52,879 nucleotides of DNA, taken from an uncultured Gammaproteobacteria bacterium (GTDB taxonomy: Bacteria; Patescibacteriota; Microgenomatia; Daviesbacterales; UBA10151). The stretch spans positions 1-52,879 of the forward strand of contig CAYOOO010000008.1 of NCBI GenBank assembly GCA_964405655.1. Direction: 5' to 3'. Position 1 is the stretch's first letter; each line of letters begins with the position of its first letter. The notes under the pieces are model-generated. The model did no database searches and had not been told where the DNA came from. It was given only the letters and a program-made list of their open reading frames with translations. The position numbers and the translations under genes were made by a program. Of the stretch, positions 7,159 through 9,268 are shown piece after piece.

Positions 7159-7932
7159 ATGAAGCTGATTTCTCTTAACTGTTGGGGTGGTAAACTTTAT
7201 CGTCCTTTAACAAGCTTTTTAAAAGATTATTCGGAACAGGTAGATATCTTTTGCCTTCAAGAAGTCTTTAGTTCTCCTCAAAGAAAATTAAGTAGATTTG
7301 GCATGAGAACAAACCTACTTCAAGAACTAGAAAAGATTTTTCCAGACTTTAACAGTTTTTTTGCTCCTGTTAGTAAACACAACGATTTTGGTATACCTGT
7401 TGATCACGACTTAGAGTTTGGACAGGCAACTTTTGTTAGGAAAAATATTAAGGTTAATTCAAGCGGTGATATTTTTGTTTACTTAAAACTGGGCAGTCAA
7501 CCAAAAAAGTTATCAGAAGAATTTATTGAGTTACCAAAGACTCTGCAGTACTTAGAAATTGAGGAATCTAGAAAAAAATTTCTGATTACCAACTTTCATG
7601 GACTGGCTTTCCCTTTTTCTAAAGAGGATACCCCTGGAAGAATTAAACAATCACAAAGAATAATGAAATTCCTGCATAGTAAAAGTGACAAGAAAATTTT
7701 AACTGGAGACTTTAATTTAAATCCTGATACAAAGTCTATTACCCTACTTGAAAACTCTATGGTTAACTTGATTAAGAAATTTAAAGTTAAGAAAACTAGA
7801 AGCAGACTTTACAAAGGAGAACACTCTTTTGCAGATTATACTTTTGTAACACCTGATATAAAAGTTCTAGATTTTAAAACTATTAATGTGACAATTTCAG
7901 ATCATTTACCCTTATCTTTAGAATTTAACTAG
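7159..7932 (+). CDS. Endonuclease/exonuclease/phosphatase (EEP) family protein
   Basis: SLNCWGG, CLQEV, NFHG, GDFNL, DYTF and SDHLPL motifs. Confidence 0.9.
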   Translation: MKLISLNCWGGKLYRPLTSFLKDYSEQVDIFCLQEVFSSPQRKLSRFGMRTNLLQELEKIFPDFNSFFAPVSKHNDFGIPVDHDLEFGQATFVRKNIKVNSSGDIFVYLKLGSQPKKLSEEFIELPKTLQYLEIEESRKKFLITNFHGLAFPFSKEDTPGRIKQSQRIMKFLHSKSDKKILTGDFNLNPDTKSITLLENSMVNLIKKFKVKKTRSRLYKGEHSFADYTFVTPDIKVLDFKTINVTISDHLPLSLEFN

Positions 7933-7961
7933 TTGACAACTTTTAAAATTTTTTTTAGTAT
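7933..7961 (+). promoter_or_regulatory. Sigma70 promoter of the metK leader
   Basis: TTGACA-17 bp-TAGTAT. Confidence 0.65.
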
Positions 7962-8013
7962 CGTTTATAGGTTTTAGTTTTAGGTAAGGCTTGTAAATTT
8001 AAATACTATTTAA

Positions 8014-8173
8014 ATTTATCAAGAGCGACGGGGACCCCACTTCGTCTTAAAGGACTACGAGGGGTGGCGCGAAGCTTTATGCGAAGTGCCAGAGAATTGG
8101 CTCAATGATCCGTCCAACAACCTCCGCCTGGGGCGGGAAGGTGCTAAATCCAATCCCATAGCGGAAAGATAAG
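8014..8173 (+). ncRNA. SAM-I (S-box) riboswitch with a 57-nt two-hairpin insertion in P2
   Basis: P1 UUUAUC/GAUAAG, AUCAAGAG start, P2a GACGG/CCGUC, P2b GAG/CUC with UUGG loop, CAACC...GGUGCUAAAUCC, GAAAGAU end; directly upstream of metK. Confidence 0.9.
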
Positions 8174-8181
8174 AATCATCT

Positions 8182-8208
8182 AATCTTCCCTTTTGGGGAA
8201 GATTTTTT
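8182..8208 (+). terminator. Intrinsic terminator, expression platform of the riboswitch
   Basis: AATCTTCCC-TTTTG-GGGAAGATT followed by a T-run. The 5' arm can alternatively pair with GGAAAGATAAG (P1 3' strand) as an antiterminator. Confidence 0.8.
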
Positions 8209-8215
8209 AAGGAAA

Positions 8216-9268
8216 ATGTTGTATACACCAAAAATTCACACTGCAGAGTCTGTGACTTCGGGACACCCAGATAAAGTTTGCGACCAAGTTTCTGATGCAA
8301 TTTTAGATGAATGCTTAAGGCAAGATCCTAAATCCAGGGTGGCAATTGAAACATTCGGATGCCACGGACTATTGGTTATTGGCGGGGAGATCACCACCAG
8401 AGCTGAACTTGACTCAGTTAAAATTGCCCGGGAGGTTTACTCAGGTATTGGCTATAAAGACAATTTGGAAATTTTAACAAGAGTTGTTAAACAATCTCCT
8501 GATATAGCTCAAGGAGTGGATACTGGTGGAGCAGGTGACCAGGGAATAATGTATGGATACGCCACAGATGAAACACCTCAACTTTTACCTAAGGCAATAG
8601 TGCTGGCCCATCAGTTAACCAGAGGTTTACAAGAGCTTCGTGAAAGCGGTGAGGTCCCTTGGTTAAAACCTGATGGAAAATCTCAGGTTACTATTGAAGG
8701 TGAAAAGATTAAAACTATTTTAATTAGCGTCCAACACGATGAAAAAATTAGCCAACCCAAAATTAAAAAAATCCTGACAGATAAATTAATTAAGCTGCTG
8801 GTAGGTAATATTAAAGGGGTTGAGATTTTAGTTAACCCGACCGGAATATTTACAGTCGGCGGCTTTGCAGCCGATACTGGTTTGACTGGTAGAAAAATTA
8901 TTGTAGATACTTACGGTGGAGTGGTTCCTCATGGAGGAGGTGCTTTTTCTGGTAAAGATCCGACCAAGGTTGATCGGTCAGCTGCCTACATGTGCCGGTT
9001 TGTGGCTAAAAATATCGTTGCCAATAAACTTGCCAAAAAATGTTTAGTTTCAGTTGCCTATGCAATTGGCCGGGCTGAACCGCTTATGGTCGAGGTAGTT
9101 GATGAAAATGGCAAAAGCTTGGCATATTTAATTAATAAAAAATTTGATTTTCGGCCAAAGGCAATTATTGAAAGACTGGATTTGAGAAAACCAATTTATA
9201 TGCAAACAGCCTCTTATGGCCATTTCTCCCGCTCAGATTTCTCCTGGGAACAGATTATCAAACTCTAA
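8216..9268 (+). CDS. metK: S-adenosylmethionine synthetase
   Basis: AESVTSGHPDKVCDQ, GAGDQG and GGGAFSGKDPTKVDRS motifs. Confidence 0.98.
   Translation: MLYTPKIHTAESVTSGHPDKVCDQVSDAILDECLRQDPKSRVAIETFGCHGLLVIGGEITTRAELDSVKIAREVYSGIGYKDNLEILTRVVKQSPDIAQGVDTGGAGDQGIMYGYATDETPQLLPKAIVLAHQLTRGLQELRESGEVPWLKPDGKSQVTIEGEKIKTILISVQHDEKISQPKIKKILTDKLIKLLVGNIKGVEILVNPTGIFTVGGFAADTGLTGRKIIVDTYGGVVPHGGGAFSGKDPTKVDRSAAYMCRFVAKNIVANKLAKKCLVSVAYAIGRAEPLMVEVVDENGKSLAYLINKKFDFRPKAIIERLDLRKPIYMQTASYGHFSRSDFSWEQIIKL

Follow-up and report, generated by a model that had tools for sequence, protein, structure and literature searches.

A SAM-I riboswitch aptamer upstream of metK in a CPR bacterium, with two extra hairpins at its P2 kink-turn

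The metK leader in the DNA analysed here (the window, a single stretch of 52,879 nt) carries a SAM-I riboswitch aptamer whose P2 helix contains, at the site of the kink-turn (K-turn), an insert of 57 nt that folds as two closed hairpins. Extra helices recur at this site in the aptamers of related CPR bacteria, and both hairpins belong to a hairpin family whose members are distributed sporadically among CPR loci and phage contigs. Studies of how a kink-turn shapes a ligand pocket use the SAM-I K-turn as their standard system. We consider the leader to be a probably functional SAM-I (S-box) OFF-switch that acts on metK by transcription termination, with a peripheral and possibly mobile hairpin insertion.

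The first-pass annotation placed a SAM-I aptamer upstream of metK, and this is borne out by a full-length cmscan match and by the Pfam domains of the gene starting at 8216. The leader consists of the following features.

7933..7961, + strand: promoter-like site TTGACA-17 nt-TAGTAT, with 10/12 consensus matches; a consensus match only, its use by the cell being putative
8013-8175, + strand: SAM-I aptamer (Rfam RF00162), from cmscan over the whole SAM model, positions 1-108
8015..8020, + strand: P1 5′ strand UUUAUC, pairing with 8168-8173 (cmscan alignment, MFE fold)
8021..8026, + strand: J1/2 AAGAGC, conserved SAM-I core, fitting the AAGAG consensus
8027..8031, + strand: P2a 5′ strand GACGG, the NC helix of the K-turn, pairing with 8110-8114 (folds)
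8032..8034, + strand: K-turn non-bulged strand G8032(3n) G8033(2n) A8034(1n) (sequence reading)
8035..8065, + strand: hairpin A, CCCC/GGGG stem, core CUUCG-UCUUAAAGGA-CUACG, with a possible extra pair A8034-U8065 (MFE fold)
8066..8090, + strand: hairpin B, GGCGC/GUGCC stem, GAAxGAA internal loop, GC/GC, UUUAU loop (MFE fold)
8091..8091, + strand: single-A linker, which becomes A1n when 8034-8090 is taken as the insert (sequence ambiguity)
8092..8103, + strand: P2b (C helix), GAG 8092-8094 / CUC 8101-8103, loop AAUUGG (folds)
8097-8100, + strand: pseudoknot strand UUGG in the P2 loop, complementary to CCAA 8150-8153
8104..8109, + strand: K-turn bulged strand, L1-L3 AAU 8104-8106, then G8107(1b) A8108(2b) U8109(3b), as in the xxxGAx consensus of relatives
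8110..8114, + strand: P2a 3′ strand CCGUC (folds)
8116..8145, + strand: P3 AACAACC...GGUGCU, with one A8117.C8144 mismatch (cmscan alignment)
8146..8153, + strand: J3/4 AAAUCCAA, of which CCAA 8150-8153 pairs with the P2 loop (cmscan alignment, complementarity)
8154..8165, + strand: P4, short (UCC/GGA, 3 pairs, 6-nt loop), from sequence and cmscan, with non-canonical pairs flagged there
8166..8187, + strand: antiterminator hairpin, P1 3′ strand with the terminator 5′ arm (MFE of the leader folded to 8192 only)
8168..8173, + strand: P1 3′ strand GAUAAG (cmscan alignment, MFE fold)
8182..8208, + strand: intrinsic terminator, 10-pair stem followed by UUUUUU (MFE fold, sequence)
8216..9268, + strand: metK (SAM synthetase, 350 aa), the regulated gene, with three S-AdoMet_synt Pfam domains (E 1e-30 to 1e-58)

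The cmscan match scores 31.7 bits (E = 2.2e-5 over a 401-nt stretch, 0.0029 over the whole window) and so lies below the RF00162 gathering score of 44.4, although the alignment is full length. The deficit arises because 72 nt, which stand in place of 12 model positions within P2, are taken as a local end, and the 12 consensus positions, including P2b, are dropped. The gathering threshold is an operational cut-off and describes no structural feature. A default Rfam scan at this threshold gives zero matches in all 52,879 bases, as foreseen in the earlier remark that standard covariance models may miss the aptamer. A permissive scan of the window finds a single element, SAM (RF00162) at 8013-8175 on the + strand, and no tRNA, rRNA or other Rfam family is detected in window positions 1-52879 even at E 0.05.

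In its architecture the aptamer is like other members of RF00162, with the four-way junction of P1-P4, a core formed by J1/2, P3, J3/4 and J4/1, the P2 K-turn, the pseudoknot, a terminator/antiterminator platform and a position upstream of metK; it differs in its low score, to which the default scan is blind, in its short P4 and in the single A.C mismatch of P3. The segments UUAUCAAGAG, AUGA, CAACC, AAGGUGCUAAAUCC and AAAGAUAA all align to the RF00162 consensus, and the AUCAAGAG motif of J1/2 is present in nearly all related aptamers. The MFE fold of the leader contains P1, P2a, P2b and the terminator; P3 and the weak 3-pair P4 were located with the cmscan alignment and by inspection of the sequence. 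At the sequence level P2 has the 3-nt bulge of a K-turn followed by tandem G.A/A.G positions (G8033 A8034 opposite A8108 G8107, i.e. 2n.2b and 1n.1b). The three nucleotides after P2a read xGA in most related aptamers, and position 3n, which is G in 95% of SAM-I K-turns, is likewise G in the window (PMC4382518). With UUGG and CCAA available for pairing between the P2 loop and J3/4, and the terminator recovered at 8182-8208, the pseudoknot partners, P1 and the terminator are intact, as had been claimed.

The expression platform comprises the terminator, a competing antiterminator and, downstream, a SAM-related gene. When a related antiterminator pairing (8163-8170 with 8183-8189) is enforced, the predicted energy is -62.1 kcal/mol, versus -63.8 kcal/mol for P1 plus terminator, and such a near-balance, as modelled, is a property that an OFF switch requires. 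Within hairpin B, the loop CUUUAU (8075-8080) repeats the P1 5′ strand UUUAU (8015-8019), and weak competition of this loop for the P1 3′ strand is conceivable.

The source organism is a Patescibacteria/CPR bacterium (ultra-small). The matches of its MetK, at 55-81% identity, all come from CPR MAGs, the best of those named being Daviesbacteria, and the window is low in GC (0.31-0.42), with a GC skew that is strongly negative from ~12 kb onward. On its upstream side metK is flanked by an Exo_endo_phos protein and a DUF763 protein, and on its downstream side by gpsA, a PspC-domain protein, an FAD/NAD oxidoreductase and Sua5/YrdC.

P2 of the window reads GACGG-G8032 G8033 A8034-[57 nt]-GAG-AAUUGG-CUC-AAU-GAU-CCGUC (8027-8114). 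As an A flanks both ends, the insert can be taken as 8034-8090 or equally as 8035-8091. The first-pass placement between the G and the A of the non-bulged strand is therefore one of two equivalents; the alternative, after A1n, is more likely, because it leaves the tandem G.A contiguous and because eight relatives with a single hairpin (see below) show the same placement. MFE folds of the leader and of P2 alone agree with each other, and with the earlier reading of the insert as two closed hairpins, in giving P2a, hairpin A (8034-8065), hairpin B (8066-8090) and P2b. The insert folds with -21.5 kcal/mol, compared with -14.4 +/- 3.0 for shuffled sequences (z ~ -2.4; 6 of 500 shuffles as stable), and hairpins A and B taken singly each have a z of about -2.8 against shuffles. 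One long hairpin, with A paired to B, is possible but reaches only -15.1 kcal/mol, ~6 worse than the two hairpins, and was not adopted.

The insert is a fixed, single-copy feature of the sampled population. Four Logan run assemblies, from four groundwater samples, reproduce positions 7850-8450 with 0 differences and 0 gaps at depths of 7-25; no insert-less joint occurs in these assemblies, and in each run one contig matches 8028-8096 at a likeness of at least 80%. In freshwater run X5, from a different study, a 151-nt contig equals window positions 8091-8240 but for one extra T in the U-tract. This contig spans three-quarters of the aptamer, on its 3′ side, and runs on through the terminator into the start of metK; the part with the insert is unassembled there, and the neighbouring metK sequence in the run is only ~91% identical to the window.

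Relatives were surveyed at 166 metK loci from genomes and metagenomes, plus the contigs of the closest proteins; loci and contigs are referred to by L numbers. The nearest SAM-I relatives, L165 (MetK 80% identical) and L161 (81%), have a canonical P2 with no insert and score 46.1 and 53.8 bits, respectively, with the Rfam SAM-I model. P2 of L165 reads GGUGG-GGA-AAG-AAUUGG-CUU-UUU-GAU-CCACC, which is that of the window minus the insert, base for base, with compensatory changes in P2a (two, giving GGUGG/CCACC) and in P2b, so that removal of the insert indeed restores a canonical P2, as first proposed. A freshwater-run aptamer with 33 nt identical to 8091-8123 (P2b-P3) and with GACGG also has no insert. 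The doublet itself is known from a single genotype and is without covariation inside the window's own lineage.

Extra helices at the K-turn are not restricted to the window. A covariance model (R1) was built from 20 CPR aptamers and used to align 78 aptamers, in 68 of which P2 is 24-34 nt long. Seven (L022, L025, L111, L103, L108, L096 and L104) carry one extra closed hairpin of 12-60 nt right after the A of the non-bulged strand, and L192, added to the survey later, is an eighth CPR metK aptamer with a single hairpin after this A. No extra P2 hairpin occurs in the 24 non-CPR aptamers. Single-hairpin P2 segments fold unaided as P2a, hairpin and P2b, with the exception of L192, in whose P2 MFE structure the P2a strands are paired differently. 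Complementarity of the P2 loop and J3/4 is retained in all eight, and is complete in 54 of 67 related aptamers. The pseudoknot pairing covaries (CUGG/CCAG in 21 aptamers, UUGG/CCAA in 7, CUAG/CUAG in 6, CAGG/CCUG in 5, and others), UUGG/CCAA, the type of the window, being the second commonest class. Retention and covariation of the pseudoknot in the presence of an added helix suggest that the kink-dependent fold is still under selection with a helix at the K-turn site, and a k-junction-like P2 thus appears to be a recurrent and tolerated architecture in CPR SAM-I aptamers. In the best metagenome relative, L081:811-960 (MetK 71%), an extra 23-nt hairpin lies on the bulged (3′) strand of P2, where it replaces the K-turn bulge and the G.A pairs.

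All ten Rfam-scanned aptamers with an extra P2 hairpin (nine with the hairpin on the non-bulged strand, the window included, plus L081; L192 is not in the set) are absent at, or fall below, the gathering threshold. L096, L104 and L108 give no match, and the other relatives with an extra P2 hairpin score 30.6-39.9 bits. Censuses of CPR riboswitches are for this reason likely to under-count extra-hairpin aptamers.

It had been pointed out that extra helices at this position are how k-junctions are built, and the window does fit the published definition of a k-junction (PMC4005666) at the level of secondary structure, the closed hairpins of 8035-8091 lying between A8034 and G8092. Known k-junctions have exactly one T helix and are three-way, whereas the window has two hairpins and, at the level of predicted secondary structure, is a four-way junction. 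The three-way form with a single T helix, as in known k-junctions, is found in the eight CPR relatives (L022, L025, L111, L103, L104, L192, L096 and L108). In the searchable literature TPP riboswitches and DUF-3268 are the only RNAs with described k-junctions, and no paper connects these with SAM-I. The window resembles the k-junctions of TPP riboswitches (Arabidopsis, E. coli) and DUF-3268 RNA in keeping the nucleotides that form the G.A/A.G pairs (PMC4005666, PMC10573300), and resembles TPP riboswitches in that the kink positions helices and makes no ligand contact. Natural SAM-I aptamers with one or two helices at the K-turn would constitute a second riboswitch class tying k-junction folding to ligand binding, and the window would be the first natural four-helix version within that set.

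In the mechanism we propose, the doublet would fold in the RNA as two separate closed hairpins and turn the two-helix K-turn into a four-helix junction. The insert would lie on the outer face of the kink, where the K-turn could still form and the hairpins could project away from the core in the manner of a T helix. In natural k-junctions the third helix (T) is on the outer face, stacks on the C helix and points off the core (PMC4005666, PMC10573300), and on this basis the extra hairpins are expected to be structurally peripheral, so that the switch most likely still works. The K-turn in P2 would let the P2 loop pair with J3/4, and SAM, by stabilising P1, would cause the terminator to form and metK transcription to stop. 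All parts for this known mechanism are present (P1, J1/2, the P2 K-turn, P3, a short P4, and an antiterminator and a terminator that exclude each other). Weighing against a functional switch are the sub-threshold Rfam score, the 3-pair P4 and the A.C mismatch in P3. A four-helix junction also corresponds to no described k-junction, and the two hairpins could clash or misfold, for instance into the long A-B hairpin.

As judged from their sequences, hairpins A and B appear to be inverted copies of one hairpin module of ~30 nt with the core CUUCGCAUAAAGCUUCG. In L104, whose MetK is 65% identical to that of the window, the extra hairpin follows the same ACGGGGA and has the apex CUUCGCAUAAAGCUUCG; window 8070-8086, which forms the core of hairpin B, is exactly the reverse complement of this apex. 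These positions are likewise the exact reverse complement of a 17-mer, CTTCGCATAAAGCTTCG, found in L104 and in phage contigs. Hairpin A has the same motif in forward orientation in a diverged form, and its apex is 3 nt longer than that of the module. The module was defined from an alignment (A4) and the model derived with it (R2) as a stem, a UUCxUUC internal loop, GC/GC, a 5-nt loop and the core CUUCG-N7-CU(U/A)CG, a description that both window hairpins fit. R2 scores hairpin B, a member of its training set, at 37.9 bits on the - strand, and hairpin A, which is outside the training set, at 17.8 bits (8032-8067, + strand, E 0.015 window-wide). That R2 recovers hairpin A without having been trained on it lends weight to the suggestion of the first-pass annotation that the motif common to both hairpins reflects repeat insertion.

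Across the 52.9 kb window R2 matches only hairpins A and B; a dispersed repeat within the window was sought by exact and 3-mismatch search, blastn-short and covariance model, and none was found. Across 232 kb of CPR loci the model matches only L104, L109, L102 and L192. In the 16-member module alignment 96% of cells are paired and 5 of 8 pairs show compensatory changes, a level not attained by any of 500 shuffles. The 17-mer, exact or in closely similar form, occurs at the P4 apex of L109 (in reverse), downstream of metK in L102 and in IMG/VR phage contigs. In L109 the module (L109:750-782, - strand) forms the P4 apex within the SAM-I aptamer L109:647-800, and L196, 85% identical to L109, has a plain P4, CCC-GCAA-GGG, and thereby an empty site. 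L192 (89% MetK identity to L104), where the module was recognised independently, carries it at the K-turn with a compensatory change of the inner helix from GC..GC to GU..AC; L193-195 (83-79%), relatives of L104 and L192, have a plain P2.

None of the next relatives of the carriers (L161/L165, L193-195 and L196) has the module. Since these near relatives have a plain P2 or P4, the module appears to have been gained sporadically, at three sites, or at four if the window and L104/L192 represent separate events. On the transcript it is in reverse orientation in hairpin B and L109, and forward in hairpin A, L104 and L192. Sporadic gain, the use of both orientations and the presence of one inverted doublet resemble the behaviour of a small insertion element that persists only at places where a closed hairpin is tolerated.

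REP/REPIN sequences and other miniature hairpin repeats are short imperfect-palindrome units that occur in non-coding DNA in both orientations. The module is like them in forming an inverted doublet here, in occurring in both orientations and in its sporadic, lineage-specific presence, with an empty site in close relatives (window versus L161/L165, L104/L192 versus L193-195, L109 versus L196). It differs from REP/MITE elements, which have many copies, in being present at one locus in 52.9 kb and on one contig per metagenome. It also differs from REPs in that its conserved part is the apical core and not the stem, and in that so wide a spread of one core, over distant CPR lineages and phages, would be unusual in a REP. 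At the ends of the insert there is no clear target-site duplication beyond a single A.

Copies of the module in phage contigs are as follows.

L173:1317-1349, phage module copy (IMG/VR), intergenic
L180:3209-3241, phage module copy (IMG/VR), intergenic
L187:758-790, phage module copy (IMG/VR), intergenic
L172:3773-3805, phage module copy (IMG/VR), intergenic
L183:4026-4058, - strand, phage module copy (IMG/VR), intergenic
L167:1084-1116, - strand, phage module copy (IMG/VR), intergenic
L185, L186, L189 and L190, phage module copies (IMG/VR), by contig, intergenic

These copies form the apex of hairpins of the type (U/C)CCU(A/C)C...G(U/G)AGG(A/G), in contigs with a GC content of 0.34 to 0.67, and are mostly sense with the flanking genes; that of L173 is 19 nt upstream of a P22-like portal gene. 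The raw count of pattern matches in the phage collection is, by a rough estimate, about that expected by chance. However, 11 of the 15 matches to a pattern with a free centre in this collection share features that the pattern did not require, namely C-N5-G at the centre, complementarity of the M/K positions, one more complementary pair beyond the pattern and a trailing CA(A/G)G. Pattern matches in the GC-rich phage contigs L182, L181, L184, L188, L170, L171 and L177-179 are chance-like or coding-like and were left out of the family. No Rfam family is found at the phage module sites within 40 kb of scanned phage contigs, and the module core sequence occurs in no paper. The module is a widely shared element that connects CPR genomes with phage contigs. 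The unusually conserved core, together with the sense orientation of most phage copies between genes, argues against a purely selfish reading.

Judged by the leaders compared, the control of metK is evolutionarily labile in the window's clade, with rapid turnover. L162-164 (L162:664-785) and L166 (L166:710-825) have a SAM-I/IV-type aptamer (RF01725; 44.8 and 37.6 bits, respectively), and in L175 and L176 (MetK 75%) the gap separating metK from the gene before it is only 33-53 nt, which leaves no riboswitch at all. RF01725 is of the same clan as SAM-I, has the same ligand pocket and lies upstream of metK in these close relatives, but its P2 is a plain hairpin without a K-turn and its pseudoknot is a different one, whereas the window keeps the SAM-I K-turn and P4.

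Given this lability, it is conceivable that the riboswitch is dead or decaying, the insertion having broken the K-turn-dependent fold and left the leader as a constitutive terminator, or as read-through, awaiting loss. The low Rfam score, weak P4 and P3 mismatch would fit such a history, as would the relatives that lost the leader (L175, L176) or swapped the aptamer type (L162, L166). We nevertheless think it unlikely, as the conserved core positions, K-turn consensus, pseudoknot, P1, antiterminator and terminator are all intact, and nine aptamers from several lineages tolerate a helix at exactly this site with the pseudoknot kept. The A.C feature is also found in P3 of L081, which has the identical CAACAACC/GGUGCU with its unusual start, and a constitutive terminator before an essential single-copy metK would presumably be strongly deleterious. 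It is scarcely credible that the insert stems from an assembly error or a chimera, or that it arose when the 5′ end of the riboswitch was partly duplicated in tandem. The artefact concern, raised with the first-pass annotation, was checked against the four independent assemblies, and because these are identical, with no alternative joint, the insert was retained. In favour of such an origin is that R1 preferred an alignment beginning inside hairpin B (8074-8175, 46.7 bits). This register was rejected, as it deletes the J1/2 core and leaves no P2a partner; it is a by-product of avoiding the long insertion, to which the model is led because the hairpin B loop CUUUAU mimics the P1 5′ strand. Moreover, unrelated DNA contains other members of the family to which both hairpins belong.

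Another explanation concerns the module and not the switch, namely that it is a functional RNA element (a protein-binding site, or a tertiary-contact, folding or stability module) that has been repeatedly recruited and adds an input or property to the riboswitch. Consistent with this, the 17-nt core is identical in the window, L104 and several phage contigs, despite the 65% MetK identity, while stems change with compensation; the module is kept at the K-turn in both L104 and L192 along with the inner-helix change; the sense phage copies are often just upstream of a ribosome-binding site; and the G.U pairs of hairpin B and L109 exist in the transcribed orientation only. An RNA-level motif, however, should not tolerate both orientations on the transcript, and the absence of the module from the nearest relatives of every carrier, of Rfam matches at the phage sites and of the core from the literature also speak against it, so that we find this explanation improbable. 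More tentatively than the reading we prefer, that of a working OFF-switch with peripheral hairpins, we suggest as a possibility that these aptamers form an undescribed CPR SAM-I subclass whose P2 K-turn takes the form of a k-junction bearing one extra helix or, as here, two. At least some of these helices would derive from a phage-shared element colonising tolerant positions in RNA, perhaps with a function at the RNA level as a protein handle or as a stability or folding module.

Two further CPR loci bear on metK and on riboswitch detection. The SAM-I aptamer of a Lloydbacteria MAG (L007:1195-1402) has a 117-nt insertion in P3 and scores 42.2 bits, just under the gathering score, and is thus a further CPR aptamer that default scans miss. 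In a Kaiserbacteria MAG metK is followed directly by a glmS ribozyme (L011:2689-2882, 52.6 bits).
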